DNA of 53,990 nucleotides from a virus (Duplodnaviria; Caudoviricetes). The stretch lies in IMG/VR virus record IMGVR_UViG_3300036766_001883, positions 1 to 53,990 of that record, one strand, 5' to 3'. The notes beneath the pieces are model-generated. The model saw only the letters and a list, made by a program, of their open reading frames with translations, had not been told where the DNA came from and did no database searches. Below are positions 1 to 21,347 of this stretch, piece by piece (position 1 is the stretch's first letter; each line of letters opens with the position of its first letter). The translations under genes were made by a program, and so were the position numbers.

Positions 1-127
1 GCACTTCCTAGCCTTGGCCACTGGGGATGACCGCGGTCCAGAGTTCGTCGGTCAGATGAATATTGAGCCTGCAGACTGCTCGCCGGCGGGGGATAGCAGG
101 GGCCAATCGTGTGATATAATGGACTCG
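1..127. repeat. Terminal direct repeat, identical to 53864-53990 (circular contig overlap)
   Basis: First 127 nt match the last 127 nt exactly; 127 is a common assembler k-mer. Confidence 0.95.
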
Positions 128-915
128 CCTACGGCGTGGGCAAGGAATACGAGCAGCGCGGGATCGAGGCGTGGTTCGACACTGTCCGGCCCGTGATAGA
201 GAACCTCGCCCGGTTCGCCGACGTGGCCTGCTGGCAGATCGGCGACCTCGCGGCGACAGGAAGCCAATTCATCGAGCCGACGATGGCCTACTCGGTGCAG
301 ATGTTCATCGCCGTCGGAATGCGGCCGATCTGGACGCGCATCTGGGAGAAGCAGGGCATGAACTTTGGCATCGGTCCCTATCACCTCGTCTCGAACAAGC
401 CGGTGCAACAGTATGAATACCTGGCGGCCTTCGCCGCTGCCCTCGGGGATGATACGGGCGGCGAACCGCCGGAACTGCGAGAGTATGGCTTCCTTTGTGC
501 CTTCGCGGCGGGACAATATCGTTTCGTGCGGCGGCTGACGCAGGCTGAGCGGCGCGCCTGGGGTTACGCCGGCATCTGGCACATCAACACGGTAGCCGAG
601 AACAAAGACCACCCCGCGATGTTCCCGTTGGAGATCCCGGAACGCTGCATCCGGATGCACAGCGACGCCTGCGATATCATCCTGGACCCCTTTTCGGGCG
701 CCGGAACGACGATAATTGCAGCGGAAAGGCAGGGAAGACGCTGCTGCGCGGTGGAACTGTCGCCGGGCTACTGCGACGTCGCAGTGGAGAGGTGGCAACG
801 CATGACGGGACTGCAGGCGGTGCTGGAGGGGAGCGGGGCCTTGTTCGGCGAACAAAGCAGGCACGCAGGTGAGCCCGCAACATCAGGCACATTTGGCAGG
901 GATGAGAGGGGATGA
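128..915 (+). pseudogene. 5'-truncated N4C/N6A DNA methyltransferase (beta class)
   Basis: HPAMFP and ILDPFSGAGTT (SAM binding) motifs, VELSPGYCDVAVERWQ tail; homology begins at YGVGKEYE, so the catalytic (S/D)PPY motif is cut at the repeat junction. Confidence 0.8.
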
Positions 916-1510
916 CCGATTGCCGCGGGGCGCGCAGGAACGCGAAGTCATCAAGCAGAGGCAGGAGCGGGCATGGCAGTTCCACACGATCCGCAAGTTG
1001 ACGGTGCCGGAAGTCGCGCGGGTGCTCAATGTCTCGGAGCGGACCGTGCTGCGCGACCTCGCCAGTTCACGCCGGCGCAACCTGGCCGCCTTCCGCAAGG
1101 AGGCGAGCAAAGCCGACTGGCTCATCGCCAATGCGATGGAGGCGCTGGAAGAGGCGAATGCCATCATGCGGCAAGCGTGGACGGACCTCGTGACTGCACC
1201 AGCGGGCTCGCCGGTGAGGGCAGGTTTTCTGAACGTGCTGCTGAAGGCGGTGGGACGGCGCATCGAGATCCTCCAGTCACTCGGGCTGCTGGACAAAGCG
1301 CCGGAAGGGATACTGATAGGTGACCTCGATCTCAACCGGCTCAGCGACGACGAACTTGCGGGGACGCTTGCCGACATCCGTCAAAGAATTGACCAGGCTC
1401 GAGCGCCAAGGGGAATTGATTCTGGCGCAGCGGCTGAACCCCGCGCCCTGGATGCGGGGGAATCTGGATATCAGGACGAAGGCCAGGACGGTGATCCCCC
1501 TGCAGGCTAA
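902..1510 (+). CDS. terS: Terminase small subunit (HTH)
   Basis: HTH (LTVPEVARVLNVSERTVLRDL), C-terminal DLNRLSDDEL, directly upstream of and overlapping TerL; start may be 869. Confidence 0.75.
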   Translation: MRGDDRLPRGAQEREVIKQRQERAWQFHTIRKLTVPEVARVLNVSERTVLRDLASSRRRNLAAFRKEASKADWLIANAMEALEEANAIMRQAWTDLVTAPAGSPVRAGFLNVLLKAVGRRIEILQSLGLLDKAPEGILIGDLDLNRLSDDELAGTLADIRQRIDQARAPRGIDSGAAAEPRALDAGESGYQDEGQDGDPPAG

Positions 1511-2138
1511 CGCGGTGCAGACGCAATACCTCGAGGGGCGCAGCGCGCGCGACATCATCTGCAAGGCGCGCCAGGTCGGAATCACGACGATTGTGTGCGC
1601 GCTGTTCTTCCACGACACGATCACGAGGCCCAACACCGCATCGGTGATCGTCGCCCACGATCGAGAAAGCACGGAACTGGTCTTCCGCATCGTGCAGTTA
1701 TTCTGGCGGCGGCTGCCGCAGGCGATGAGGGAGAAGGCGGGGCCGCCGCATTTCTCGAGCAGGCGCGAGTTCTTCTGGCCGCTGATTAACAGCCAGTTCT
1801 ATATAGGGACCGCAGGTGCCGTAACATTCGGCCGCGGCCAGACGATCAACAACCTGCACTGCTGCGAGTTCGCCTTCTGGCCTCGAGCCGAAGAATCCAT
1901 GGCCACCCTCCTGGAGGCCGTGCCGGCGGATGGCCACGTGGTGATCGAGTCCACGGCGAACGGGATCGGCAACTACTTTCACACACTGTGGCGCGCGGCC
2001 GCGGACAAGCAGAGTGAGTTCAAGCCGCACTTCTTTCCCTGGTGGCTGGAGCCGAAGTATCGGCTCGAGCCCACCGATGAGGAGTTCGAAGCATGGCAGA
2101 GTCAATTGGGTCAACTGGGCGTCGCGGCACGACGCTGA
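1320..2138 (+). CDS. terL: Terminase large subunit, N-terminal ATPase part
   Basis: Walker A KARQVGITT, Walker B LHCCEFAFW, coupling motif IESTANG, FFPWW; start uncertain (1320 or TTG 1368). Confidence 0.9.
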   Translation: MTSISTGSATTNLRGRLPTSVKELTRLERQGELILAQRLNPAPWMRGNLDIRTKARTVIPLQANAVQTQYLEGRSARDIICKARQVGITTIVCALFFHDTITRPNTASVIVAHDRESTELVFRIVQLFWRRLPQAMREKAGPPHFSSRREFFWPLINSQFYIGTAGAVTFGRGQTINNLHCCEFAFWPRAEESMATLLEAVPADGHVVIESTANGIGNYFHTLWRAAADKQSEFKPHFFPWWLEPKYRLEPTDEEFEAWQSQLGQLGVAARR

Positions 2139-2596
2139 GGCCGCTGATCGCGGGGCTCTATGAAGACGGCAAATCGCTGAGCGAGGTCGGGGCGATTACT
2201 GGGTTGCATAGAGGCACTGTCAGGTATCACCTTCGGCAGATGGGTTTAGAGCGGAGACCTCAGCTAGAGGCGCTCAGAGCCGCCGGCGGGCGCATTTCGC
2301 AGCGCCTGAGAGGACGGCGCAGCCCAAACTACAAGGGAGGTCGAACTCACCAGAGTGACGGGTATATTCTGGTGCACATGCCTGGGCATCCGCGCACGGA
2401 TAAATCCGGGTACGTGTTTGAGCATCGGCTCGTCATGGAAAAGGCGGTGGGCCGGTTGCTATCTCAGCATGAGGTCGTGCACCACCGCAATGGGAGCAAG
2501 GGTGATAACCGTCTCGAGAACCTTGAGTTGCTGGCGAACCACGGCGAACATTTGGCGCGTCATGGGCACTTGAAGGGAAGTCATCATGGTAACTGA
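2093..2596 (+). CDS. HNH homing endonuclease with N-terminal HTH, inserted in terL
   Basis: GYVFEHRLVME..GRLL..EVVHHRNGSKGDNRLENLEL; RBS GAGGAG upstream. Confidence 0.92.
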   Translation: MAESIGSTGRRGTTLRPLIAGLYEDGKSLSEVGAITGLHRGTVRYHLRQMGLERRPQLEALRAAGGRISQRLRGRRSPNYKGGRTHQSDGYILVHMPGHPRTDKSGYVFEHRLVMEKAVGRLLSQHEVVHHRNGSKGDNRLENLELLANHGEHLARHGHLKGSHHGN

Positions 2597-3461
2597 AGTC
2601 ATTCCCCTGACCAGCGAAGAGGTGGCCCTGATCCACCACCATGGGTTATCGCTCTCGCAGATCAAGTGGGCGCGGCAGAGACAGCGGCAACTACGCGAGC
2701 AGTTTCTTCAGGAATATCCATGCGACGACGTCACTGCCTTCCTGACCACCGGCCGATCGTGCTTCGACGTGCAGGCTCTGCGGCAGACGCTGCAGGCGAT
2801 CGCGGGCGAATCCAAGCCGCGCAAGATCAGCGCACTGACCAAGGGAGAGGACGCGCTCTCCTTCGCGCCGGCTCAGCTGGTGGCCTGGCAGTTTCCCCAG
2901 CGCGACCGGCTCTACGTGATCGGGGCCGATGTCGGAGAGGGATTGCCAGGCGGCGATGCTTCCTGTGCCCAGGTACTGGACCGCGCCACCTGCCAGCAAG
3001 TGGCGGAACTGCACGGGCGGGTGCCGCCGGATCGGTTCGGACACATGCTCGACCGGCTGGGCCGCTGGTACAACATGGCGACCGTGGGCGTGGAGCGCAA
3101 CAACCACGGGCACTCGACCCTGAACACCTTGCGCAACGTATCCCGCTACCCGAGACTCTACTACTACATGCGCTACGACCGCACCGCGCACACGAACAAG
3201 CCGGTGCTGGGCTGGCCGACGGATGCGAGCACCAAGCCCATCCTGGTGGACGACCTGGCGGCGGCGATCAGCGGGGGCAACATCGTGATCCACTCGCCAG
3301 GGCTGGTGGACGAGTGCTTCACGTTCGTCTCTAAGTCGGGGGGCGTCCAGGAGGCGGAAGAGGGCAAGTACGACGACCGGGTCATGGCGATGGGGATCGC
3401 CTGGCAGGTGCGCAAGCGGGGCGTCGGGCGCGGGACGACGCAGAGGCCGGCGGGATGGTGA
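2586..3461 (+). CDS. terL: Terminase large subunit, C-terminal nuclease part
   Basis: FLQEYP..AFLTTGR, VIGADVGEG, VERNNHG, YDDRVMAMGIA (RNase H-fold nuclease). Confidence 0.9.
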   Translation: MVTEVIPLTSEEVALIHHHGLSLSQIKWARQRQRQLREQFLQEYPCDDVTAFLTTGRSCFDVQALRQTLQAIAGESKPRKISALTKGEDALSFAPAQLVAWQFPQRDRLYVIGADVGEGLPGGDASCAQVLDRATCQQVAELHGRVPPDRFGHMLDRLGRWYNMATVGVERNNHGHSTLNTLRNVSRYPRLYYYMRYDRTAHTNKPVLGWPTDASTKPILVDDLAAAISGGNIVIHSPGLVDECFTFVSKSGGVQEAEEGKYDDRVMAMGIAWQVRKRGVGRGTTQRPAGW

Positions 3462-3736
3462 ACCCGACGACGAGGCGCGTCCACTCTCTGCGATCGCTGG
3501 CAGAGGCAGTCGCGGCCCTCGCGTCGGAATTGCAGGTCGGCCTTCCCCCAGGGAGCGAATTGAGGATCGTCACCCCGTCCCAGGCGGCGCTGCTTGAGTT
3601 CTTTGCGGAGAACCCCTTCTGCACGATCGAACACCTCGAGATTCACGCCGGCGATCCACACCTCCTCGAGCTGCGGCTCAACGAGGTGGTGGCGGCGAAA
3701 ATCAAACTGCGGCCGCAGGAACAGAAGGTCGGTTGA
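3455..3736 (+). CDS. Small protein, DUF2292/YezD-like; candidate antitermination factor
   Basis: LLEFF..NPFCTIEHLEIHAGDP..KIKL pattern recalls DUF2292; directly upstream of RNA switch A. Confidence 0.45.
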   Translation: MVNPTTRRVHSLRSLAEAVAALASELQVGLPPGSELRIVTPSQAALLEFFAENPFCTIEHLEIHAGDPHLLELRLNEVVAAKIKLRPQEQKVG

Positions 3737-3761
3737 CATGGGCCGACCGATGGCATAGAAT
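3733..3761 (+). promoter_or_regulatory. Sigma70/SigA-type promoter
   Basis: TTGACA-N17-TAGAAT. Confidence 0.8.
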
Positions 3762-3768
3762 CGCCCGG

Positions 3769-3852
3769 ACAACTGAATAACGATGCTCGGCGACCGGAAA
3801 ACCGGAGGCGAGCCGATTGTCTCCCAAGCCTGGGAAACGCGGCTCGCTTTTT
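3769..3852 (+). promoter_or_regulatory. Attenuator A: boxA-like motif, antiterminator hairpin, overlapping intrinsic terminator
   Basis: ACAACTGAATAA, GCTCG-GCGA-CCGG-AAAA-CCGG-AGG-CGAGC; AGGCGAGCCG can instead pair with CGGCTCGCTT before a T tract. Confidence 0.75.
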
Positions 3853-3882
3853 CGTTTCGGGCGCCGCGGAAGGAAGAAAGGC

Positions 3883-5319
3883 ATGGCACTCGATCTGAAG
3901 ACGTATCCGCCGGCCGGGCACACCGACAGGGTGAACGGATACGCGCGTAACGAGAAGCTCTTTCTCGGCGATCACAAGATCGTCTTCGGAGTCCAGCCCG
4001 GCCGGTTCCAGATGCTGCGCTACATCGTCGCCAACTTCCCCGCGGCACTGTCGCGGCTGTGCGCGGACTTCCTCTTCGGGGAGGAGCCGGACTTCACCGC
4101 CGGCCAGGAGAAGGAGACCGAACGCGAGGCAGGGCAGGCAGCGCTCGACGAGATGATCAAGCGCAACAAGCTGCATGTGACCAACTACGAATCGGCGCTC
4201 TCCAACTCGTTCCGCGGCGACGCGGTCTATAAGGTGCGCTGGGGGATTCGTGATCCGGCGGCGGGAGCGGATCAGAAGCCGGAGGCGATCATCCAGGAGG
4301 TGCCGGCGACGATTTTCTTCCCCGAACTCGCGGAGGACGACGTGCGCCAGATCCTGCGGGTAACGATCGGCTGGACGAAGCGGGATCCCAACGACGCGCT
4401 CAAACAGTACCTGCGCATCGAGGAGCACGAGCCGGGCGTCGTCAGGCACCGGCTGTATCTGCTCACCGGGCAGACACCCGGGCAGCAGGTCGCCCTCGAG
4501 ACGCTCGAGCAGTACAAGGGGTTGCCGGATGAGGAGCTGACGGGCCTCACCGTGATCCCCGTCGTACACATACCCAACTTCAGGTACGGCTCGCGATTTT
4601 GGGGAATTAGCGATTACCAGGGGCTGGACTCGCTCTTCGAGGCGCTCAACAGCCGGCTGTCGCAGATCGAAGTGGTGCTTGATAAGCATACGGCGCCGAA
4701 GATCATATTGCCGCCGGGCTATGTTGACAGCGACGGCAAGGTCCGGTTCGACCAGATGGAAGCGGTCGAATTGGCGGCCGGGGATCAACCGCCGAGTTAT
4801 CTCACGTGGGAGGGGCAACTCCAGGCGGCGGGGGCGCAGTATGACCGCTTGCTGGACCTGCTGATGATCACGGCGGAGATCGCGCCCTCGGTCTTCGGAC
4901 TGGAGAAGTTCGGGCTCGCGGAGAGTGGACGCGCACTCCGGCTGAGGTTGCTGCGCACCCTGGCGAAGATCAACCGGAAGCGCCTGTACTACGATGCGGG
5001 GCTGAAGCAGGCACTGACGATCGCACAGATGCTCGATGTCACCAGGGGCGGCGGCAAGTATGCACCTGCGGAACCATCGATCGCCTGGGCGGACGGGTTG
5101 CCGGAGGACGTGGTAGAGATGGCCGAGATCGAGGTGCAGCGCATGGCTGCGGGCAACACGTCGGTAGAGTCATCCATCAGAAGGCTCGATGGTCCGGACG
5201 CGGTCGAGGCCGAGATGGACCGGATGGATGAGGAGGCCGGGCAGATGGCGGTCACCACTGGGGCCTCGCAGCGGCCCGGCCAATCGGCACAACCTGGCCA
5301 GAGGCAAGGGCAGCAGTGA
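3883..5319 (+). CDS. Portal protein (SPP1 gp6-like)
   Basis: ADFLFGEEP, IPVVHIPN, WGISDY, ESGRALRL, WADGLPED motifs; follows terL. Confidence 0.9.
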   Translation: MALDLKTYPPAGHTDRVNGYARNEKLFLGDHKIVFGVQPGRFQMLRYIVANFPAALSRLCADFLFGEEPDFTAGQEKETEREAGQAALDEMIKRNKLHVTNYESALSNSFRGDAVYKVRWGIRDPAAGADQKPEAIIQEVPATIFFPELAEDDVRQILRVTIGWTKRDPNDALKQYLRIEEHEPGVVRHRLYLLTGQTPGQQVALETLEQYKGLPDEELTGLTVIPVVHIPNFRYGSRFWGISDYQGLDSLFEALNSRLSQIEVVLDKHTAPKIILPPGYVDSDGKVRFDQMEAVELAAGDQPPSYLTWEGQLQAAGAQYDRLLDLLMITAEIAPSVFGLEKFGLAESGRALRLRLLRTLAKINRKRLYYDAGLKQALTIAQMLDVTRGGGKYAPAEPSIAWADGLPEDVVEMAEIEVQRMAAGNTSVESSIRRLDGPDAVEAEMDRMDEEAGQMAVTTGASQRPGQSAQPGQRQGQQ

Positions 5320-5600
5320 TGGGCGGCGTCTTTCACAGCGCAGTCTATGGCGCGATGAACAAACGGCAGCGGCGCCGCCTTGGCATGGCCGGATATCGGC
5401 GCGAGGAAGTCTGGGCGCGCATGGCGGCGGAGGAGGGGCGGATGCGGGCGGCCCGGGCTGCCCTGGCCTGGAAGGTGACGCCTTGGTGGCGCAAGGTGGT
5501 GATACGGATCAGGCTCTTCTGGCCCGTTCTCGTGCGGTTACTCGCGGCCTGCGGGCGGCGGCTGACTTTTTTTCGCAAGAAACCACGAGGAAAACCGTGA
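5316..5600 (+). CDS. Hypothetical basic protein
   Basis: ORF overlapping the portal stop and filling the gap. Confidence 0.45.
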   Translation: MMGGVFHSAVYGAMNKRQRRRLGMAGYRREEVWARMAAEEGRMRAARAALAWKVTPWWRKVVIRIRLFWPVLVRLLAACGRRLTFFRKKPRGKP

Positions 5601-5615
5601 GGTTCGGCCTGCCCC

Positions 5616-6707
5616 ATGCCTGCCCTCATCTCCAAGAGACGCGTTGACGAGTTCCGCCGGGCGTTCGACCGCGAGATCAACTCCCTGGCGGCGCTCTACC
5701 GCAACGCCGCCGCTGATGCCCTCGACGTGTTGAGCCAGGCGGCTGCCACGGTCGCCTCGCGCCAGCGCGCTCTGGCCTTGCTGCGGCAGTATCAATATGT
5801 CCTCGCGGGACTGAACGATGAGGCGGCGCTCTGGATCCAACTCAACGTGCCCAAGGCATACCAGTTGGGGGTCGAGTTTGGAGAGCAGGGACTCCGGGGC
5901 GTACGAAGGGCAGCCGGGCGGGCGGGCATCAACCTGCGGCCAGAGGCCCGCCGTGCGGTGGCGCTCCGGGAGCGGGATGTCTTCTCGCGGGTACACCAGG
6001 AAGCGGTGCAAGCGATAACGGGTGCGATGCTCGATCAGGTGAACGCCGCGGTCCTGGAGATCGGGCGGCGGACGGATGATGTTTTCAGGCAGCAAGGCAT
6101 CCTGGCGGTGGCCAGGGGCGTCGCCGCCGGCAAGGCGCGCGTCGAGGTGAGCCGCGAGATCAAGGACCGGCTGATCGCGGCGGGCCAGCCGGTCTTCCGC
6201 GATCGCCTCAACCGCGTCTGGACGCTGGACCGCTACGCCGAGATGGTGGCGCGGACGACCACGCGGGAGGCGATGACGCAGGGGACGATCAACCGACTGC
6301 GGGAAGAGGGGATCGTGCTGGCGCAGGTGAGTCAGCACCCCTGCAAAGATTTTTGCGTCTATTATGAAAACGTCATCGTCTGCATCCAGGGGACCCATCC
6401 GGTCTATCCCGGCATCGAGGCGATCGGCGGCGGCCCACCATTCCACCCTCGGTGCATACATGTCCTGAGGCCCTTCGTCGAACGGCTGGCGAGCCGCGAA
6501 GAGAAGCAGGAGGGCAAGGTCGCGGCGGACCTGCTGCGGCCGGAAGGGAAGAGCAAGGAGCAGCACTTCGCCCTGCTCCAGCGGCGGTTCACGAAAGAAT
6601 TCCCGCAGTTGGCGCGCGAGGAGGGGAAGCGCCTCCGAGCCGAGGGCGCCCGGGCAGAGGCGCGGCGCGAGCGCGCGATCGCGCGGGCAGGCGCAAAATC
6701 TTCCTGA
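5616..6707 (+). CDS. Minor capsid / head morphogenesis protein
   Basis: YAEMVARTTTREA, CKDFC, PPFHPRCIH motifs. Confidence 0.85.
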   Translation: MPALISKRRVDEFRRAFDREINSLAALYRNAAADALDVLSQAAATVASRQRALALLRQYQYVLAGLNDEAALWIQLNVPKAYQLGVEFGEQGLRGVRRAAGRAGINLRPEARRAVALRERDVFSRVHQEAVQAITGAMLDQVNAAVLEIGRRTDDVFRQQGILAVARGVAAGKARVEVSREIKDRLIAAGQPVFRDRLNRVWTLDRYAEMVARTTTREAMTQGTINRLREEGIVLAQVSQHPCKDFCVYYENVIVCIQGTHPVYPGIEAIGGGPPFHPRCIHVLRPFVERLASREEKQEGKVAADLLRPEGKSKEQHFALLQRRFTKEFPQLAREEGKRLRAEGARAEARRERAIARAGAKSS

Positions 6708-6714
6708 TGGGGGA

Positions 6715-6742
6715 TTGACAGGGGGAGAAGTTGCGGTAGAAT
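6715..6742 (+). promoter_or_regulatory. Sigma70/SigA-type promoter
   Basis: TTGACA-N16-TAGAAT, same hexamers as the 3733 promoter. Confidence 0.7.
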
Positions 6743-6794
6743 AGCAGGTGGCCTTGGGCTCGCCTGGACGGGATCTGGGGACGAGCCCGCGATG

Positions 6795-6894
6795 ACAACC
6801 GAATAATACGGCCTGGCGACCAGAAAACTGGAGGCAGGCATCTCGCGATCCTCGAGGTGATGGAGGGTCATGGGATGTCTGCCTCTTTCTTTTT
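6795..6894 (+). promoter_or_regulatory. Attenuator B, paralogue of A
   Basis: ACAACCGAATAA, GCCTG-GCGA-CCAG-AAAA-CTGG-AGG-CAGGC; GAGGCAGGCATCTC/GGGATGTCTGCCTC stem plus TTTCTTTTT. Confidence 0.78.
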
Positions 6895-6909
6895 GGCCAG
6901 GAGGAAAGG

Positions 6910-7092
6910 ATGCCTGTTCACGAGGTCGCCGGCGGTTGGAAATGGGGCAGGCACGGCAAGGTCTATCCGACCAAGGAACAGGCGGAGGAACAAGGCCGGG
7001 CGGCATTTGCGAGCGGTTACAGGGGCCGCAGGGTTCCGCGAGTACGCAAGTCGAGCCGGCGGTTCAAAGTCGGCCGTCGGGCAAGTAGGTGA
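6910..7092 (+). CDS. Small phage protein
   Basis: RBS GGAGG; GWKWG..GKVY..KEQA..QGRA pattern typical of small head-region proteins. Confidence 0.7.
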   Translation: MPVHEVAGGWKWGRHGKVYPTKEQAEEQGRAAFASGYRGRRVPRVRKSSRRFKVGRRASR

Positions 7093-7097
7093 TAAAA

Positions 7098-7460
7098 ATG
7101 GCGGACATCACGATTGACAACAGCACATTCGTCAGCGGGGCTTACGGTCCGGGAGAGAGAGCTGCTCTCGGGGAAAAGTTGGCCGAGGCAGGAGATGAGA
7201 AGGCTATTCGGGAGGCGTTCCTCTACGTGCCGGACCTCGAGAAGCGCAGTACCTGGGGCGGGCCGCACCACGAGTTGAGGGGCGACACACTCGTCGTCAA
7301 TCGCACCGCAGTTCACGCCAGGTTGGGTGAATTGCACGGCGGCCGCAACCCGGGCGGCCCCGACTGGCCGCGGAGCGCCATTGTCGCCGGGTTGGCCCAT
7401 CTCCGGAAGCATTACCAGGGGATGGATGAGGAAATGCCCGACAAGCCGTCGGGCGACTGA
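7098..7460 (+). CDS. Head-region protein (PHH..LVVNR..HLRKHY domain)
   Basis: RBS AGGTGA; paralogous to the next ORF. Confidence 0.65.
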   Translation: MADITIDNSTFVSGAYGPGERAALGEKLAEAGDEKAIREAFLYVPDLEKRSTWGGPHHELRGDTLVVNRTAVHARLGELHGGRNPGGPDWPRSAIVAGLAHLRKHYQGMDEEMPDKPSGD

Positions 7461-7470
7461 GGGCAGAGCC

Positions 7471-7812
7471 ATGCGAATCAACAACAAGCGCGTTTCAGAT
7501 CTGCCCTGGGATGATGAGGCGACCTTCGAGACCGAGCAGGCGATGGCCGATGCCAGCGCCAGCGTGCTCGGGGAAGCGTACTCCTATGTGGGCGGCGACA
7601 ATGTGCGTCTCGGTCTGCATCACGAGGTGGTGGACGACCAACTGCTCGTGAACCGCGAGGCGGTCTATAACGCGATGGGCGTTTTCGGACGCCGGCCAAT
7701 GGCCGTGGGCGAGGAGCTGCAGCCAAGCCCAATGATGGGGATCAGGCGCGCCGATCGCATCAAGGCGATGGAGCACCTGCACCGGCACATCCAGAGGCTG
7801 CAGCAGCACTGA
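7471..7812 (+). CDS. Head-region protein, paralogue of 7098-7460
   Basis: LHHEVVDDQLLVNREAV vs PHHELRGDTLVVNRTAV; HLHRHI vs HLRKHY. Confidence 0.65.
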   Translation: MRINNKRVSDLPWDDEATFETEQAMADASASVLGEAYSYVGGDNVRLGLHHEVVDDQLLVNREAVYNAMGVFGRRPMAVGEELQPSPMMGIRRADRIKAMEHLHRHIQRLQQH

Positions 7813-7982
7813 TAGGGATTCGTTCCGCCCCCGCAAGAGCGGGGTCGGACTTGCCAGACGCATCCGGCGGGCGGTGAATCGCCGGGAGACGCCGACGGGC
7901 GGTGGCTAAGTCTGCCGAAGGCAGACCGCCATCCCGGCCCCCAAGGGGGCTTAGGGATCAACCACGGGAGGAGACCAGGATC

Positions 7983-8699
7983 ATGCCGAAGACACCAGAG
8001 GAACTCGAAGCCGAGCGCAAGGCGCAGGAAGCCGCAGACGAGGCCAAGCGAAAAGCCGACGAAGAGGAGGCGAAGCGCAAGGCGGATGCCGCGGCCGCAG
8101 CTGCCGCTGCGGAGAGGGGCGGCTTCAAGGTCACGCTGACCGATGCCCAACGCGCGGCCCTCCTCAGGGGCGAGCCGCTGGATCTCAGCGATGAGCAGTA
8201 CACGGGCGGCGTGCGCAAGGACCTCGAGGAACAGAGGCGGCTGCGGCGGGCGGCTGAGAAGCAGCTCGCCGAGATCGCCAAGCAGCGCGAAGAGGAAGAG
8301 AAGAAAGCCCTCGTAGATCAGGAGAAGTTCAAGGACCTCTACGAGAAGGAACAGGCAGCCCATGTGACGACCCAGGGGCGCCGGAAGACCGACGCCGTGC
8401 GGGCCGACTTCATGGTGGCTGCCGCGAGGGCCGGGGTCGTGGATATGGACCTCGCCTTCCTCGCTGCGAAGGCATCGCCTCTGTTCGAGAAGGTTGCGGT
8501 GGATGACGAGGGCGCGGTTACGGGCGTCAAGGAAGTCCTCGAGCAACTGGTCAAGGACAAACCATTCCTGGTTTCCGGACAGCAAAGGCAGACGTTTGGA
8601 GGGCCGAGCAACCCCAGCACGACGGAGACGCCGGCCCCGAAGACGCTCGCCGAGGCCGGAGATCAGCTCGAAACCAGACTGAAGACCGGCCAAATCTAA
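7983..8699 (+). CDS. Capsid scaffolding protein
   Basis: Coiled-coil, charged; LVKDKPFLV C-terminal motif; precedes the major capsid gene. Confidence 0.8.
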   Translation: MPKTPEELEAERKAQEAADEAKRKADEEEAKRKADAAAAAAAAERGGFKVTLTDAQRAALLRGEPLDLSDEQYTGGVRKDLEEQRRLRRAAEKQLAEIAKQREEEEKKALVDQEKFKDLYEKEQAAHVTTQGRRKTDAVRADFMVAAARAGVVDMDLAFLAAKASPLFEKVAVDDEGAVTGVKEVLEQLVKDKPFLVSGQQRQTFGGPSNPSTTETPAPKTLAEAGDQLETRLKTGQI

Positions 8700-8768
8700 C
8701 GGTGGGCGGATGAGTCGGACTGCAGGGCTGCGCTGCCACCTGTGGACCGGCGGATCGAGGAGATTGAA

Positions 8769-9752
8769 ATGGCAGCGACTTTGAGCACGCTGGCGGAGCT
8801 GATCGTGAAGCTCTATGCCGGCCCCTGGGTGGACGCGCTCACGAAGGAGACGTTCCTATTCACCCGACTCGCGGAGCGAGGGAACGTGAAGACCGGGAAA
8901 GGCAACGGGATCCGCTGGCCCGCGCGGTATGCGGGCAACGCACAGGTGGGTTCCTATGGCGATGGGGATGCGGCCGGCGGGGCGGGAAACCAGGCCGCGA
9001 AGGAAGCCTTCCTGGCCTGGAAGTTCAACAAGGCCGAGATCTCCATCACCGGACCGTCTCTGGCCGTTGGCGCGGCTGGCGGGATGGTAGTGGACCCGTT
9101 GCGGTTCGAGCTGGACAACGGCCTGCTCGACATGCGCGATGCGATCAACACACAGATTATGACCGACGGCACCGGCAACTCGGCGAAGGATATCACCGGC
9201 CTGCTGGCGGCCCTGGCGGACTCGGGGACCTATGCGGCACTCGACCGCAGCAGCTACACGTGGTGGAAAGCCTACGTGTCGGCGAACGGCGGCACGCCGC
9301 GGGCGCTCACCGAGGCGCTGATGCGCACGGTGAAGAAGACCGTCGAGGCGCGCGGCGGCGTCGTTACGGCGATCTACGCCGGCGCCGACCAGTGGTATGC
9401 ATACGGGGATCTGCTGCGCGCCGAACGTCGGCAGCAGGACCCGCGCACCCTGACGGGCGGCTACCAGGCGCTGGACTTCGAGGGCACGCCTCTCATCAAG
9501 GTGCCTGCGTACCCGACGGGCCGCATGGACTTCGTGGACGAGCGGCTGATCGAGTACCACATGCTGCCGGTCACGAGCGAGAATACCGTGATCGCCAGTC
9601 TGCGCAACGTAGTCGCCGTGCCGGGCGTGCCGGGCTTCGGCATCCTGGTGCTGGGCGCAACGAAGGACGCAGCGGACTTCTGGATCATCCACTACAGCCA
9701 GTTGGTAGTGCGCAACCCCTACAGGATGGGCGTCCTGAAGGATCTGTCCTAG
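8769..9752 (+). CDS. Major capsid protein (HK97 fold)
   Basis: Size and position; TDGTGNS..ITGL, GGYQALDFEGTPLIK, LVVRNPYRMGVL. Confidence 0.88.
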   Translation: MAATLSTLAELIVKLYAGPWVDALTKETFLFTRLAERGNVKTGKGNGIRWPARYAGNAQVGSYGDGDAAGGAGNQAAKEAFLAWKFNKAEISITGPSLAVGAAGGMVVDPLRFELDNGLLDMRDAINTQIMTDGTGNSAKDITGLLAALADSGTYAALDRSSYTWWKAYVSANGGTPRALTEALMRTVKKTVEARGGVVTAIYAGADQWYAYGDLLRAERRQQDPRTLTGGYQALDFEGTPLIKVPAYPTGRMDFVDERLIEYHMLPVTSENTVIASLRNVVAVPGVPGFGILVLGATKDAADFWIIHYSQLVVRNPYRMGVLKDLS

Positions 9753-9787
9753 CAAGGCCCCGCTAAGCACGGGGAAGGGAGACAGGC

Positions 9788-10477
9788 ATGCCTATCAGTG
9801 ATGCGAACGAGAAGAAGTTGAACGACATGTGTCCCACGGCCAAGTTGGTTGGCCTGGGCTCTGCGATACAGGACGTAGTCGGCGGGTTGCCGCCCGATGA
9901 TACCGTCACCGCAGCCAAACTGACCACCGATGCGGTGGAGACGGCGAAGATCAAAGATGACGCTGTCACCAAGGCCAAGGTCGCGGCCGACGTGGCGGGC
10001 AACGGCCTCGGGCAGAATGCCGATGGCAGTCTCGAGGTGAAGGTTGACGACGCCACGTTGGCGATCGCCACCGACACCCTCGCCGTCAAGGACGCCGGGA
10101 TCGTCGCCGCAAAGCTCGCGGCGGATGCGGTCGAGACGGCCAAGATCAAAGACGCTAACGTCACGGCCGCAAAGCTCGCCGTGGCCCTGCAGGCGATGGT
10201 CCTCGGCGCGGCCGCGGGGTACAAACTCGCGCGGGCGGAAACCAGCGTGACGGGCGCCACCGGCGGCGACGTGACTACGGGACTTACGACCGTCGTTGCG
10301 GTTGTCGGATCACTTGCGGAGGACGCGAGCGTCGACGGACTGTTTGTGACTGCGGCCCTGGGCGGAACCGCCGGCCACATCACTCTAAAGGTCTGGAAGC
10401 CAACGGCGACCGGCGACGTTACGCCGACCCTCGCGACCGTGGCCAAGAAGGTTGACTGGATCGCCATCGGCACATAG
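9788..10477 (+). CDS. Head decoration/fibre protein
   Basis: Repeated VTAAKL/VETAKIKD units; follows the capsid gene. Confidence 0.6.
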   Translation: MPISDANEKKLNDMCPTAKLVGLGSAIQDVVGGLPPDDTVTAAKLTTDAVETAKIKDDAVTKAKVAADVAGNGLGQNADGSLEVKVDDATLAIATDTLAVKDAGIVAAKLAADAVETAKIKDANVTAAKLAVALQAMVLGAAAGYKLARAETSVTGATGGDVTTGLTTVVAVVGSLAEDASVDGLFVTAALGGTAGHITLKVWKPTATGDVTPTLATVAKKVDWIAIGT

Positions 10478-10540
10478 CCGCAAGCGATAGCGGGGACTGC
10501 GAGAGATCGGAGCCCTCGGAACATTTGAAAGGAGGCCATA

Positions 10541-10912
10541 GTGGCACCTGACGACATCAAGGCGGTCGTAGAGGCCGGGCAAGGCGTTGACAAGGCAGGC
10601 GAACCTGCGACGGCCGCAACGCGGACTGCGAAGGCCGGGTCACCGCCGGCGGAAGGGACTCCTGCCCCGCCCAGCGACACAACGCTGACCGGGATGATGG
10701 CACTGGCGGAGCCACAGCGCAGCAATGCTCTGGCGCAAGCGGTGGAGGCCGGCCTGGTGGTCAGCCTGCGCAGCCGATCGGAGGCCGAGGTCAGGCAGTC
10801 GTACGGCCAGCACGTGCTGGTCGTGACCCGCCAACCGAAGCCTTTCACGGCGGCGCATGCGATCCACCTGTTGTGGTATCGAGCAACGGAGATCGAGGAA
10901 GTCGCGGGGTAG
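10541..10912 (+). CDS. Hypothetical protein
   Basis: RBS AAGGAGG before GTG. Confidence 0.6.
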   Translation: MAPDDIKAVVEAGQGVDKAGEPATAATRTAKAGSPPAEGTPAPPSDTTLTGMMALAEPQRSNALAQAVEAGLVVSLRSRSEAEVRQSYGQHVLVVTRQPKPFTAAHAIHLLWYRATEIEEVAG

Positions 10913-10915
10913 CAG

Positions 10916-11473
10916 TTGGCCACCATCATTGACGCGACCGTAGGGGGCGCGAACAGCAACTCCTACGTGACAACTGACGAGGCGACCGCCTACTTCGCGC
11001 AGCGACTGCGATCGAGCGCGTGGACGGCTGCCAGCACGGAGGACAAGGAGAAGGCGCTCGTCATGGCCTGCCAGCACATCGAGGCGGCGCGGCCGATGAT
11101 TGACCGTGGGAGTGTGGGCACCTATGGGCCCTACGTCTCGACACAGGCGCTCTCGTTCCCCCGCAGGGCAGATTGGGTGAGCGGGACAGGTTTCGTGATC
11201 CCGCCGCCGGTGAAGCGCGGACAGTTCGAGGAGGCCCTGGCGCTGCTGGCCAGGGGCGCAGAGTCGGACCGCAGGCGCGCGCTGCAGGCGGATGGAGTCA
11301 GTTCGTTCTCCGTGGACGGGCTGAGCGAGTCGTATGGCACTGGGGCCGGGGCCCGTCATCCGATCGAGAGCCCGGAGGCCAGGGCGCTGATCGCGCCCTA
11401 CCTACGCAAGGGCGGCGTGATCGCGACATCTGATATCGCCCAGGGCGAGTTCAGCCCGGGGAGCGACATGTGA
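10916..11473 (+). CDS. Head-tail adaptor (DnaT-like ssDNA-binding family)
   Basis: ANSYVT..EATAYF, QALSFPR, IPPPVK motifs. Confidence 0.8.
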   Translation: MATIIDATVGGANSNSYVTTDEATAYFAQRLRSSAWTAASTEDKEKALVMACQHIEAARPMIDRGSVGTYGPYVSTQALSFPRRADWVSGTGFVIPPPVKRGQFEEALALLARGAESDRRRALQADGVSSFSVDGLSESYGTGAGARHPIESPEARALIAPYLRKGGVIATSDIAQGEFSPGSDM

Positions 11474-11500
11474 TCCTACTTCGCCAAGGCTACGAAGGAT
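11473..11500. repeat. REP-like palindrome, family 1
   Basis: CTTCGCCAAGGCTACG core, also at 12280 and 12311. Confidence 0.7.
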
Positions 11501-11501
11501 C

Positions 11502-11807
11502 ATGATTGCAGACTACCTGGCGCAGACGATCTGGCACAAGCCGAAGACGGGCGTGGATGGAAATGGCCAGCCGGTCTTCGGCGCGGCTGTCCAGATGACG
11601 GCGCGCTGGTTGGAGAAGCGCCGGCTGGTGCGCAACGCCCAAGGCGAGCAGGTGATCTCGGAGGTCACCGTCTCGCTGGCGGGCGATGCGCCCGTGGTTG
11701 CAGGCGACCGCCTGTCTGCCGACGGCAGCGCCTATCACGACGTGATCGCGTTCTCGGTCTCGCGCGGCTTGAGCGGTGAGGCCGAGTTGAAACGGGCTTT
11801 CATCTGA
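11502..11807 (+). CDS. Head closure protein
   Basis: DGNGQP, RLVRNAQGEQVIS motif; synteny. Confidence 0.75.
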   Translation: MIADYLAQTIWHKPKTGVDGNGQPVFGAAVQMTARWLEKRRLVRNAQGEQVISEVTVSLAGDAPVVAGDRLSADGSAYHDVIAFSVSRGLSGEAELKRAFI

Positions 11808-11823
11808 GGCAGAGGAGGAACGC

Positions 11824-12279
11824 GTGCCTCTTTTCGGACAGCGCGGCGTGGGGAAGTTCGGCCTGGTGATCACCGGCCTGAACGAACTGCGGCGCAAGAT
11901 CCGCCCGGGCGGAGAGGTGGAGCGGAAGGTGCAGGCAGCCCTGGTCCGGGCGATGATCGAGAACGTCGAGGACCTGCTGAGCCGTTCGATGCGCGATGCT
12001 CCTGTGAAGGAAGGGTTCCTGCGCGGGAGCGGCACGGCGGAGGTGCTGGTGAACGGCAAGCGGGTCAGCGGCGCCGGACCCGGCGCTGCGGAAGGCGGCG
12101 GTCGCGGGGTCGTCGGCATCGTCGCGTTCAACATGCCCTACGCCCTGGTGCAACACGAGCGGCTGGACTTCCACCACCCGAAGGGCGGGAAAGCGAAGTA
12201 CCTCGAGGACAACCTGAAGCAGCGGGCTACGGTCTATGCTGACAACATGGGCCAGCACGTGGCGGGAGCGCTGGCATGA
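11824..12279 (+). CDS. HK97 gp10-like neck protein
   Basis: APVKEGFLRGS, PYALVQHE, GKAKYLE motifs. Confidence 0.8.
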   Translation: MPLFGQRGVGKFGLVITGLNELRRKIRPGGEVERKVQAALVRAMIENVEDLLSRSMRDAPVKEGFLRGSGTAEVLVNGKRVSGAGPGAAEGGGRGVVGIVAFNMPYALVQHERLDFHHPKGGKAKYLEDNLKQRATVYADNMGQHVAGALA

Positions 12280-12335
12280 TCCGCCTTCGCCGAGGCTACG
12301 GCGGACAAGTTCCGCTTCGCCGAGGCTACGGCGGA
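12280..12335. repeat. Two tandem REP-like palindromes, family 1
   Basis: TCCGC(C)TTCGCCGAGGCTACGGCGGA twice. Confidence 0.8.
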
Positions 12336-12369
12336 GAGGGCCTGCTCCGGCTCGGGGCTAGTGAGAGCG

Positions 12370-12771
12370 ATGGCGCTGCTCATTGACCAATTGGCGGCTT
12401 ACTTGCAGACCCAGGGCGAGGGGACGGTCGGCACGGACGTCTTCAAGACGCACCGGCCGGCATCACCCCTGGCCTGCCTGACTATCTATCCGACCGGCGG
12501 TTATCCGCCAGACCGGTACACGGTGCGGGAGAAGCCGACCGTGCAAGTGGTTGCGCGCGCGGCTTCGCCGGATGCGGCGCTGCGCAAGGCCTACAGTATC
12601 TACTCCAGGCTGCACGGCAAGCAGAACCTGGACCTGGGCGGCGGGATCGTGGCGCTGACGATCGAGGCGAGCGACAGCCCGGTTTACATCGGCGAGGAGA
12701 CCGCCGCAGATCACACGGCGCACCTCGCCTCCGTGAACTTTGCATTCGACCTGCGGAGGCCGTCTTCGTGA
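12370..12771 (+). CDS. Tail terminator/completion protein
   Basis: PTVQVVARA, AYSIYSRLHG, SVNF; synteny. Confidence 0.75.
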   Translation: MALLIDQLAAYLQTQGEGTVGTDVFKTHRPASPLACLTIYPTGGYPPDRYTVREKPTVQVVARAASPDAALRKAYSIYSRLHGKQNLDLGGGIVALTIEASDSPVYIGEETAADHTAHLASVNFAFDLRRPSS

Positions 12772-12820
12772 GGGCGATGATGGGATAGGGAACGACGCCG
12801 GCGCGTGAAGGCCGGCGCGA

Positions 12821-12862
12821 CCCTTCGGCAAGCTCAGGGTCACCCCGAGCGAAGTCGAGGGG
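12821..12862. repeat. REP-like palindrome, family 2
   Basis: CCCTTCGGCAAGCTCAGGGT-CACCCCGAGCGAAGTCGAGGGG imperfect inverted pair; related copy at 20437. Confidence 0.65.
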
Positions 12863-12864
12863 CG

Positions 12865-12958
12865 ACAATCTGGCCCAAGCGAAAGCGGCCTGATCAGCCG
12901 TGGTCGCGAGACCAAGCCCTGACTCCGTTGCAACGGGCGGAGCCGGGGCTTTTCGTTT
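12865..12958 (+). terminator. Leader element C with intrinsic terminator before the major tail gene
   Basis: GCCCAAG..GGCC..GCC, then AAGCCCTGACTCCG/CGGAGCCGGGGCTT stem plus TTCGTTT. Confidence 0.6.
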
Positions 12959-12981
12959 GGGCAACGACGAGGAGGAGAGAG

Positions 12982-13803
12982 ATGTCAACAACTATCAGCA
13001 ACGTGTACCCGTCCTACGCGAAGGCGGGCGATGCGACCATCAAGGTCATCGGGACCGGGTTCGTGGACACGCCCTCCCTGACCAAGGTCTATCACCGGTT
13101 GAAGGGGGCGACCCCGTGGGAGGCGGTGGACCCGGGCCGGGTGACCTTCGTCTCGGCGACCGAGTTGACCGTGGCGATCGACGCGGGCAACACCGACGGC
13201 TGGGACATGGGCCTCAACGACGTGGCCGTCTCGGACTATGGGGAGACGACGCCGGACGGGTCCGTGATCGCGGCGCTGTTCTTCTACGGGGCGGGGACGT
13301 TCGATCCCGACGCGGTGATCAAGGGCGCGCTCGAAGAGCTGTACGTCCAGGGCCTGTTCATGGGCCACACGCACAGTTCGCTGGACCTCGACATGGGCAC
13401 CGAGACGTCGGACATCGAGGTGGAGCAGTCGCTGCTGCCGGTGCGCACGATCAAGGTCGGCGAGAGCTTCACCATGAAGGTGGCGCTGGCCGAAGTGACC
13501 CTGGAGCACATCAAGGAGCTGTGGGGCATCTCAGCCTCCATCCAGGAACTGGTGGCGGGCCGGCGGCGGCTGACCTTCGGCGGCGACACGGCCATCATCG
13601 AGAAGGCGGTGATGCTGATCGTGCCGGGGAGGTCGGGCAAGAAGTTCGCGCTGACCTTCTACCGCTGCGCCGTACGCGCATCGGGGACGCTCTCGTGGAG
13701 CAAGGAAGACCAGGTTGACCTGCCGCTGGAGTTGACGATCCTGGCGGATACGAGCCGGGCGGTCGGCGACCAGGTCGGGCGCTGGGAAGAGTACACGGTC
13801 TAG
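12982..13803 (+). CDS. Major tail (tube) protein with N-terminal Ig/IPT-like domain
   Basis: RBS GAGGAGG; ISNVYP..IKVIGTGF..FVSATELTV (IPT-like); C-terminal tube fold; synteny. Confidence 0.75.
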   Translation: MSTTISNVYPSYAKAGDATIKVIGTGFVDTPSLTKVYHRLKGATPWEAVDPGRVTFVSATELTVAIDAGNTDGWDMGLNDVAVSDYGETTPDGSVIAALFFYGAGTFDPDAVIKGALEELYVQGLFMGHTHSSLDLDMGTETSDIEVEQSLLPVRTIKVGESFTMKVALAEVTLEHIKELWGISASIQELVAGRRRLTFGGDTAIIEKAVMLIVPGRSGKKFALTFYRCAVRASGTLSWSKEDQVDLPLELTILADTSRAVGDQVGRWEEYTV

Positions 13804-13944
13804 GCGGCCCTTCAACGCATGATGATGCGGCGCCGATCTATCGGGGTCGCAAGAGTGGGGCGGGGACGGAGACGCGTCGCGTTGTTCCGCGGCAGCGCAC
13901 AACGGCGTGCGCGCTCCGTCTCCGCTGCACAGAGGAGGATTCCC

Positions 13945-14394
13945 GTGGGAGCAGACGAGGACATGGAGGAGCGGCAGGCCCCGGCTGAAGAGGCCGGGCG
14001 CCCGAGTGCGGACGAGGCGCTGATTCCGAGCGAGAAGCGGTTCACCGTCGGTGAAAAGGAGATCGTGCTGAAGCCCTTCACGATCGGGATGCTCAAGCGG
14101 GTGAGCGATGACATCGGGGCGGTCAGCCAGGAGATCATGCAGAAGCACCCGGAGATTGACCTGGCCCGGCCGGAGATGCACCTGGGCCTGATAGTCCCGA
14201 TCGTGGCCGAGTCAGTCAGCCGGATACTGGGGCGGGTCTTCGAGATCGAACCGGCCTACCTGGACGAGCACATGACCCTGCACCAGGCCGTGGAGATCAT
14301 CGCGGCGGCGATCGAGATCAACCGGCTGCCGAAGATGCGCGAGGATTTAGCGCGGGCCCGCCAGATGGTGAAGGGCGTTCCGAAGATCGCGTAG
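13945..14394 (+). CDS. Tail assembly chaperone (G-like)
   Basis: RBS GAGGAGG before GTG; lies between tube and tape measure genes. Confidence 0.7.
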   Translation: MGADEDMEERQAPAEEAGRPSADEALIPSEKRFTVGEKEIVLKPFTIGMLKRVSDDIGAVSQEIMQKHPEIDLARPEMHLGLIVPIVAESVSRILGRVFEIEPAYLDEHMTLHQAVEIIAAAIEINRLPKMREDLARARQMVKGVPKIA

Positions 14395-14714
14395 TGTTCG
14401 GTCTGGCGGGCGCGTACGACCTACTGATGTCGGAGTTCGGGGCAGCCTGCCCCGACGACATCACGGAGCGGTGGACGCCGGCGCAGGCGGTGGTGGCGAT
14501 GGAGGCGATTCACCGGCGGCGGGCGGCGCGGCTGGCTGAGGAGACGCAGGCGATGTACGTGACGATGGCGGCGGCGCAGGGCGGCAAGAAAGCCTTCAAG
14601 GCTTACCGCGGGCTGGTGAAAGGGCTGCTGCGGCAGGCGGGCCAGGCGCCGGACACCACGACGGCGGAGGACGTGGCCGCGGCGATGGGGCTGAAACAGG
14701 CGGGCGCGGGATAG
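14394..14714 (+). CDS. Tail assembly chaperone (T-like, possible -1 frameshift extension)
   Basis: In the -1 frame relative to the upstream gene, no clear RBS; ERWTPAQ motif. Confidence 0.65.
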   Translation: MFGLAGAYDLLMSEFGAACPDDITERWTPAQAVVAMEAIHRRRAARLAEETQAMYVTMAAAQGGKKAFKAYRGLVKGLLRQAGQAPDTTTAEDVAAAMGLKQAGAG

Positions 14715-14718
14715 AGCA

Positions 14719-18345: not shown

Positions 18346-18354
18346 GGAGCGATG

Positions 18355-19212: not shown

Positions 19213-19242
19213 TCTATGTTACCTCCCTGGTTGAAGGCTGCC

Positions 19243-19259
19243 AGCAAGAAGCGTGCCAA
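19243..19259 (-). promoter_or_regulatory. Sigma54 (RpoN) -24/-12 promoter
   Basis: TTGGCACGCTTCTTGCT matches TGGCACG-N4-TTGCW, about 30 nt upstream of the 19212 start. Confidence 0.7.
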
Positions 19260-19306
19260 GGCGGCCCTCCAGAGCATTTATGCCATGAATTGAGGCCGAA
19301 ACAGAG

Positions 19307-19684
19307 ATGGCGAGCAGTTGCTATTTGAGTCTGCCGGACGATTCGGAGAAGACGTATCTGGACGAGGATCCGGAGTCCTACGACGACGGGCCGCCGGACC
19401 GCCGGATGTCGTCAGCGGAGACGATCGGCGGCGGGCGGGTGTGGCAGGACTTCGGGGCCCAGGATGTTGACCGGACGATCCGGGTGCGGACGGGGTGGAT
19501 GACGCAGGCGACGCTGGACCTCTTCAAGGCCAAGTTCGCCGTCGTTCCCCAGGCGTGGAAGTGGGCCGACCACAAGGGGCGGGCTTACCTGGTGGTATTC
19601 CGGAGCATCAAGCCGGAGCGGATCCGGGGATACGAGGCCTACCGGGTGGAGATGGTACTCGAGGTGATGGAGGTGGTCTCGTGA
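19307..19684 (+). CDS. Distal tail-like protein
   Basis: Position after tape measure; size and beta-rich pattern. Confidence 0.55.
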   Translation: MASSCYLSLPDDSEKTYLDEDPESYDDGPPDRRMSSAETIGGGRVWQDFGAQDVDRTIRVRTGWMTQATLDLFKAKFAVVPQAWKWADHKGRAYLVVFRSIKPERIRGYEAYRVEMVLEVMEVVS

Positions 19685-21183: not shown

Positions 21184-21223
21184 AGGCATAGCGGAGCAGC
21201 GCGCGCCTGAAACGCGCGCTTCG

Positions 21224-21320: not shown

Positions 21321-21347
21321 GGGCGGCGATCCAAGGAGGAGGATGAG

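Follow-up and report, generated by a model that had tools for sequence, protein, structure and literature searches.

Introduction

To our knowledge, the timing of late gene expression in temperate phages is understood at the molecular level for only a few models, namely N, Q, put and the late activators. Here we describe a leader element in the IMG/VR virus record IMGVR_UViG_3300036766_001883 (Duplodnaviria; Caudoviricetes), analysed over its whole length of 53,990 nucleotides (the window; all positions are those of the window). The element lies at 6715-6894 on the plus strand and consists of a promoter, a conserved single-stranded box, a short two-part hairpin and an intrinsic terminator that shares bases with the hairpin. 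It is the second of two such leaders: copy a (3733-3857) precedes the portal gene and copy b (6715-6894) precedes the scaffold/capsid block. Competition between the hairpin and the terminator probably decides when the head genes are expressed.

Judged by analogy, the mechanism is most like that of the protein-held antiterminators (RAT/CAT) or of the ANTAR regulons. In the RAT/CAT systems (BglG, SacY, LicT) transcription terminates by default and a protein that holds a hairpin gives read-through. The leader resembles them in having a short hairpin with an internal loop that overlaps an intrinsic terminator just downstream, but in the leader a conserved single-stranded box also precedes the hairpin, the genes that follow are virion genes, and its sequence shows no relation to any Rfam family. 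ANTAR regulons (EutV, AmiR, NasR) are alike in having several terminators in one gene block, each with its own factor-binding antiterminator. ANTAR sites, however, are two tandem hexaloop hairpins, whereas the leader has one two-part hairpin and a box. A Pfam scan of 30 of the 70 heuristic open reading frames (ORFs) of the window found neither a CAT/PRD protein family nor an ANTAR domain.

The regulatory logic recalls two phage systems, N/nut and Q/PR′/tR′. The nut sites of lambda (boxA plus boxB) also combine a single-stranded box, a short spacer and a hairpin that differs between related phages, with one site per promoter, and N and boxB show allele specificity between related phages. The box of the leader, AACYGAAUA, is however dissimilar to the boxA consensus; the hairpin competes physically with the adjacent terminator, so that its action looks local rather than processive; and the candidate protein partner, g7 (see below), is not arginine-rich as N is. 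One ORF of the window (40954-41334) does have an arginine-rich N-terminus, and it has no match in four relatives. The lambdoid Q/PR′/tR′ arrangement is similar in its apparently constitutive promoter, followed at once by a terminator and then by late genes, with a candidate regulator gene just upstream. The action of Q, however, depends on a DNA site and a paused polymerase. What the leader conserves is a helix of RNA, in which G-U pairs and compensatory changes occur, and a genome has two to three such sites rather than one. No antiterminator-Q family was found in the Pfam and PHROGs scans of window ORFs (30 and 20 ORFs, respectively).

None of the features that could be tested placed the leader in the RAT/CAT, nut, Q or ANTAR groups, and it is assigned to the terminator/antiterminator elements in general. 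A simple RNA device of promoter, box, hairpin and terminator appears to gate the head genes of a whole uncultured phage lineage. Should the small ORF upstream of copy a encode the factor, its product would found a new family of antiterminators that bind RNA, and a 'hypothetical protein' widespread in phages would gain a function. In synthetic biology, the leaders would serve as compact and orthogonal parts for the control of transcription.

Results and discussion

Promoter b consists of TTGACA (6715-6720) and TAGAAT (6737-6742) with a 16-nt spacer (6715-6742 overall). Between it and the box, sequence and folding reveal an extra 5′ hairpin, GGGCTCG...CGAGCCC (6756-6788), which copy a lacks, which the closest relative has in a shorter form and which was not part of the initial annotation of this DNA. 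Box b, ACAACCGAATAA (6795-6806), holds the core of the leader family, AACYGAAUA, at 6797-6805, and is followed by a 4-nt spacer (6807-6810) and the putative antiterminator hairpin (6811-6839). This hairpin has an outer stem, GCCTG (6811-6815) with CAGGC (6835-6839); an asymmetric internal loop, GCGA (6816-6819) opposite AGG (6832-6834); an inner stem, CCAG (6820-6823) with CTGG (6828-6831); and the apical loop AAAA (6824-6827). The intrinsic terminator (6830-6894) begins within the 3′ half of the hairpin: folding places its 5′ arm, GGAGGCAGGCATC..., over these bases and its 3′ arm at 6872-6885, directly before the T tract TTTCTTTTT (6886-6894).

Copy a has the same plan on the same strand. Promoter a (3733-3761; TTGACA, 17 nt, TAGAAT) is followed by box a, ACAACTGAATAA (3769-3780), which begins 7 nt past the -10 hexamer and would for this reason lie at, or adjoin, the 5′ end of the transcript. 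The hairpin, seen in the sequence and by folding (3785-3813), reads GCTCG, GCGA, CCGG, AAAA, CCGG, AGG and CGAGC in order, and the terminator (3807-3857), upstream of the portal gene, is formed by the pairing of GGCGAGCCG with CGGCTCGC followed by TTTTTCGTTT. The initial annotation, which was made by a model from the letters of the sequence, had described copy b as a second copy of an RNA switch with the same promoter hexamers, box, 4-nt spacer and GCGA/AGG and AAAA loops as the first, with both stems changed in register (CCGG/CCGG to CCAG/CTGG and GCTCG/CGAGC to GCCTG/CAGGC), and with a hairpin overlapping a terminator ahead of the scaffold/capsid block. All of this was found again on re-reading: TTGACA and TAGAAT occur at both sites, the spacer and loops are identical, one inner and two outer pairs are altered on both sides with pairing kept, and the 3′ arm of hairpin b is the 5′ arm of its terminator. 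A possible leader peptide was rejected, as an ATG at 3783 in copy a has no counterpart at the matching place in copy b.

Six sigma70-like sites were found in positions 1-20000, and promoters a and b, with 11 of 12 hexamer matches, are the best of them. The hairpin core GCGANNNNAAAANNNNAGG (GCGA-N4-AAAA-N4-AGG) has two exact matches in the window against 0.03 expected, a count reached in none of 100 shuffles, and AACYGAATA has three, all on the plus strand, against 0.12 expected (again 0 of 100 shuffles). The 12-nt box searched with up to two mismatches was not significant by itself, with two matches against 0.81 expected and 20 of 100 shuffles reaching two.

When folded in isolation, the two hairpins adopt the structures drawn, at -16.7 and -16.4 kcal/mol (z scores of -3.1 and -3.4). 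The minimum-energy fold of each full leader is instead the terminator, at -36.9 kcal/mol for copy a and -47.1 kcal/mol for copy b (6795-6895, z score -6.2). The terminator stem of copy b runs from about 6830 to 6885 and uses GGAGGCAGGC, the 3′ half of hairpin b. Because the terminator is far more stable than the hairpin, we infer that termination would be the default. A pairing of the box with the terminator U tract, seen in the fold of copy a, was dropped since it is inconsistent in copy b and in the relatives.

The same competition is seen across related phages. In 63 of 65 distinct members of the leader family (described below) the last seven bases of the hairpin have a complementary 7-mer 20-110 nt further on, with a T-rich tail directly after it, and minimum-energy folds of whole leaders agree that the terminator arm pairs with these last bases. 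The shared 7-mer itself varies (GGCGGGC, GGCGAGC, GGCAGGC, GGCGACC, GGCGGAT and others), and its upstream and downstream partners both track the change. It is mainly this three-way agreement that argues for competing antiterminator and terminator structures. Two exclusive helices thus share one strand, the downstream helix is followed by a U tract and the upstream helix is supported by covariation, as is general for terminator/antiterminator attenuators. The 'RNA switch' of the initial annotation holds in the sense of a hairpin alternating with a terminator, the two mutually exclusive folds being supported by the relatives; in the sense of a ligand-sensing riboswitch it found no support.

Related loci were gathered with a profile of 30 portal proteins, a single portal protein having retrieved none as query. 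The profile returned 80 IMG/VR loci, 7 loci from genomes and 61 from metagenomes; the last partly duplicate the IMG/VR loci, and counts are therefore given on distinct rows. By text search, most close relatives have AACYGAATA on the portal strand, followed by a hairpin and ...AGGCGGGC. A covariance model, R1, was then made from 20 aligned examples with the two-part structure written onto the alignment. It gave 52 matches in a first set of 815 kb; in a second set, of 752 kb, there were 104, of which 55 are distinct. All are on the plus strand of portal-oriented loci, that is, on the late-gene strand. The consensus is AACYGAAUA, a spacer of 2-6 nt, an outer stem of 4-7 base pairs, two 5′ purines, an inner stem of 3-4 base pairs with a loop of 3-7 nt, one A on the 3′ side and then GGCRRRC. 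A TTGAC-type -35 and a TAnnnT -10 lie within 110 nt upstream in 56 of 65 distinct members; the distance from the end of the -10 to the box is 3-14 nt in most of them and 27-54 nt where an extra 5′ hairpin is inserted. Both positions, before the portal gene and before the scaffold/capsid block, are occupied in the window and in the whole relatives G001 and G002.

R1 matched only where the portal shares about 44% identity or more with that of the window, and none of seven distant loci from genome contigs had the element. As a control, two loose two-anchor patterns were used to pull 146 IMG/VR stretches, and only 6 of the 126 from new contigs passed R1 at E ≤ 0.01. From this control and the portal-identity limit, the family looks confined to this phage lineage. 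Rfam gave no match in the whole window at the gathering score and, at E ≤ 10 over 2200-5400 and 6600-7000, only unrelated chance rows; the listings returned by literature searches contained no description of such a leader element. An exact scan of IMG/VR with a pattern for the hairpin of the window itself found three stretches, which were AT-rich, had no stems and were discarded as chance matches.

One related locus (L162, 4011-4186) carries two tandem leaders, 134 nt apart, with differing inner hairpin types; the first looks degenerate.

Covariation in homologues bears out the view of the initial annotation that the paired changes support a functional RNA structure. Over 55 distinct rows, 94.8% of 464 base-pair cells can pair, compared with 80.5% when the 3′ partners are shuffled and 34-61% when they are slid. 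Six of the nine pairs are altered on both sides across the family, and there are 72 double-change cells against 23.6 in shuffles (0 of 500 shuffles reach 72). U-G pairs are frequent in both stems: three of the pairs have them in 11, 19 and 9 of about 55 rows. This favours an RNA over a DNA palindrome. From an alignment made by MAFFT and not fitted to any structure (A3), RNAalifold also returned a two-part hairpin, with seven pairs, five of them compensatory, one outer pair being in a slightly shifted register with respect to the structure drawn.

The box and the hairpin behave differently within this family. AACYGAAUA is nearly invariant but the inner stem-loop is not, and the inner type is nevertheless the same at both copies of a genome: AAAA in the window, AUAA in G002, GYGAU in G001, and so on. 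Apical loops, too, vary across the family yet agree within a genome. Over 19 distinct genome pairs the similarity of the inner core was 0.88 within a genome and 0.63 between genomes (0 of 10000 permutations). When copy b of the window is compared with copy b of G001, conservation covers the promoter, the box and, in the terminator, the first 18 nt and the 3′ arm, but about 26 nt containing the inner hairpin have been replaced. Gene conversion between the copies could contribute to the identity of the inner cores. Selection by a shared, genome-specific trans factor is favoured, because the outer stems and terminators adjoining the inner hairpin differ between copies. A universal box and a genome-specific inner hairpin suggest two recognition modules, and such a design predicts that read-through would need the cognate factor and would fail after a hairpin swap.

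The best candidate for this factor is the product of a small ORF, g7 (3455-3736, plus strand, 93 amino acids), which lies between the C-terminal half of the terminase gene and promoter a and has its TGA stop codon inside the -35 hexamer. A small ORF is found in the terminase/copy a interval with every hairpin type, and its type varies with that of the hairpin. Alone among the 70 heuristic ORFs of the window, g7 has a match in G002, which has the hairpin type of the window, and none in G001, G003 or G005. By tblastn, relatives of g7 were found in ten related loci, and these are exactly the ten with a window-type hairpin before the portal gene (two further rows were overlapping stretches of one of the ten records). 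The g7 homologue lies 1.6-3.8 kb from the hairpin in some of them (L008, L014 and L119, which are G002-type genomes) owing to inserted genes. With other hairpin types, the gap of 210-250 nt between terminase and copy a encodes a different small ORF; these share the pattern W..L...GG[FY]G, strand, G.P, strand. A partial Mantel test of small-ORF distance against copy-b core distance, given portal distance, gave r = 0.40 (n = 16; 1 of 10000 permutations).

The sequence and predicted structure of g7 gave few leads. AlphaFold models had a predicted local distance difference test (pLDDT) score of 44.9 in a first run and 73.6 in a second, and the second model has two helices and a beta hairpin. There was no Foldseek match to it at E ≤ 0.001 and the best VIA Z was 3.6. 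Sequence searches of the PDB gave chance-level rows only, NCBIfam nothing meaningful and the Atlas nothing, and a word-based homologue search returned only g7 itself. DUF2292 (PF10055) matched weakly (E 0.031) in one of 11 small ORFs of other types and in none of 17 g7-type proteins; it is also the nearest named Atlas cluster (score 0.79, structural TM score 0.45-0.48) and is regarded as a lead only. The listings of a literature search on DUF2292/YezD gave nothing on function.

A separate observation concerns the ends of the small ORFs. In 13 of the 17 distinct ones listed, the frame is open through the promoter (the -35 being read as ..PLTG..) and stops at a UAR formed by the end of AACYGAAUA and the next base; these loci include L026 (2452-2706), L035 (5546-5884), L013, L028, L015-L017, L112, L021 and L031. 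A ribosome ending such an ORF on a read-through transcript would cover the 5′ arm of the hairpin. The window differs in that its stop codon lies in the -35.

Taken together, these data lead us to read 6715-6894, with moderate confidence, as copy b of a cis-regulatory leader which would terminate transcription by default and allow read-through when a factor, possibly g7, locks the hairpin. A strong promoter of host type would fire, giving a transcript that presents the single-stranded AACYGAAUA and, after 2-6 nt, the two-part hairpin with its outer stem, purine-rich asymmetric internal loop and inner stem-loop. The last 5-7 nt of the hairpin (GGCRRRC) would be the first bases of the long intrinsic terminator stem. 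Without the factor, the more stable terminator would displace the hairpin and transcription would end about 90-150 nt past the start. A trans factor clamping the box and hairpin would block the base of the terminator stem, and the polymerase would then go on to transcribe the portal genes after copy a and, after copy b, those for the scaffold and capsid. If a specific partner is to be guessed at, we would name g7, the small protein encoded just upstream of copy a.

This may be taken a step further, to a two-component late switch, although we regard that version as tentative and doubtful in its full extent. Here, allele-specific RNA-binding antiterminators of about 70-90 amino acids (possibly DUF2292-like) would always have their gene between that of the terminase and the first leader. 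Each allele would read its own inner hairpin, and the box would recruit a conserved component, probably from the host. By locking the antiterminator at two or three leaders, the two together would release the virion genes. In its logic such a switch would be the counterpart of N/nut and Q/qut, with local competition between hairpins as its mode of action.

Several observations weigh against a hairpin locked by g7. The leader was read from sequence and computed folds, and the candidate partner is named from synteny and co-variation. The box at 21224 (see below) stands without this class of hairpin, so the box can work, or at least persist, by itself, and the relative G003 has only one weak copy of the leader. 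As g7 is linked to copy a (at 37 nt to 3.8 kb), its association with the hairpin type is partly one of linkage. The protein is not basic (isoelectric point 6.0), Pfam, Foldseek and VIA searches assigned it to no known RNA-binding family or fold, and any homology to the other types of small ORF is at best weak, with hhalign values of E 0.15 and then E 0.0045 at 7.8% probability. The permutation tests overstate independence because the genomes are related, with several close kin among the 16 and among the 19. As for the covariation, alignments A4 and A5 were fitted to the structure of the model, which favours pairing, and RNAalifold on the model-fitted A5 gave no pairs; we think that the gaps in this alignment, and a shift in register of its window-type rows at the inner stem, explain the failure.

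Other explanations were weighed against the same evidence. It is unlikely that the leader is a processive site of the nut or put kind, at which the box and hairpin would load a factor on RNA polymerase, or bind the polymerase themselves, and enable it to pass terminators generally, with the terminator overlap being secondary. Such a site would have the bipartite layout that is seen, with a universal box and a genome-specific hairpin and one site behind each promoter. Also in its favour, two further terminators of the tail region lack the hairpin of this class (class A), and one of them carries the box. Against this, the 5′ arm of the outer stem co-varies with the segment used by the terminator in 63 of 65 members, which a site acting on polymerase only would not need; the apical loops are not conserved across the family; and no N-, Q- or NusG-like family was found among 30 ORFs searched with Pfam or 20 with PHROGs. 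That the leaders are genes for a trans-acting small RNA (sRNA) of about 90 nt, with AACYGAAUA as its 5′ seed, is very unlikely, although this could coexist with a hairpin that competes with the terminator. The promoters and terminators are strong, the box starts 3-10 nt past the -10 hexamer in most members, and so would be at the 5′ end of the RNA, and there is a precedent: the short, early-terminated PR′ transcript of a lambdoid late promoter is reported to act as an sRNA (PMC7547250). In the window, however, the box has no match on the minus strand and hence no complement on the late strand; it lies 27-54 nt from the -10 hexamer in the subset with an added hairpin and has no promoter at all at 21224; and the conserved competition between hairpin and terminator would be left unexplained.

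A small-molecule riboswitch, in which a ligand bound in a pocket of box and internal loop would stabilise the antiterminator, is slightly less probable again. A conserved single-stranded box and a purine-rich internal loop beside a terminator would suit such a device, and a default-off layout is typical of transcriptional riboswitches. The Rfam searches described above, with no family at the gathering score and only chance rows at E ≤ 10, speak against it, as does the nature of the controlled genes, which are virion genes only; and a ligand pocket would hardly vary its inner stem-loop between genomes and yet match at both sites within one. Least probable, and by our estimate highly improbable, is an element in the early transcribed region that acts at the level of DNA (an operator, a Q-binding site or a sigma-dependent pause signal), with the hairpin as an inverted-repeat protein site. 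Its place directly 3′ of a promoter would be apt, and the two helices and beta hairpin of the g7 model resemble the layout of some DNA-binding domains. The distance to the promoter, however, ranges from 3 to 54 nt, the stems conserve pairing and not sequence, and G-U pairs are common in both stems at the frequencies given above. A related reading as an initial transcribed sequence or sigma-pause signal was rejected, given the 27-54 nt between -10 and box in a subset and the lack of a promoter at 21224.

Neighbouring features and genome

The third box, AACTGAATA (21224-21232, plus strand), has no promoter and stands with a different set of hairpins ahead of a terminator; it is kept in the closest relative. 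The element spans 21195-21322 and contains the box, GCCCAAGAGA, two hairpins and the terminator, and scores just 13.6 bits with R1. Its counterpart in G001 is at 49863 (9863 in L095), and there the first hairpin has a compensatory change from CCAGGGT/ACCCTGG to CCGGGGT/ACCCCGG. In both leaders of the tail region (12850-12960 and 21237-21323) the U tract plus GGGC that comes after the terminator has its complement in a GCCCAAG... tract further upstream, and owing to this closing pairing the minimum-energy fold of each is a three-way junction.

The window is complete as a virus record and carries direct terminal repeats; its G+C content is 64.8%, and nearly all of its genes are on the plus strand. 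The PHROGs scan placed, in order on that strand, the C-terminal half of the terminase large subunit (2586-3461), the portal (3883-5319), an ORF of 93 amino acids between the portal and minor head protein genes, the minor head protein (5616-6707), an ORF of 60 amino acids (phrog_31267, 6910-7092) that is the first 3′ of copy b, the scaffold (7902-8699) and the major head protein (8742-9752). An integrase (34256-35446) marks the phage as temperate. The terminase large subunit is split between two ORFs, at 1320-2138 and 2586-3461, with another (2093-2596) between them; relatives have a single ORF of about 540 amino acids.

A blastn search of 3000-9000 against deposited phages gave no match. The closest complete relative is G001 (portal 72% and major head protein 87% identical). 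Few of the closest portal proteins in a large protein collection are named; two come from metagenome-assembled genomes of Armatimonadota (64% and 47% identity), and those named as Firmicutes are 46-49% identical. The host is therefore uncertain.

Besides a terminal repeat of 127 bp (1-127), a perfect direct repeat of 298 bp lies near the right end (50002-50299 and 53693-53990, 3691 bp apart). It contains the sequence of the terminal repeat, and ParB-like and N6-methylase genes lie between its copies. At 25944-26138, inside a large plus-strand ORF, a unit of 57 bp occurs three times in tandem (overlapping matches of 81 nt, 98-100% identical).
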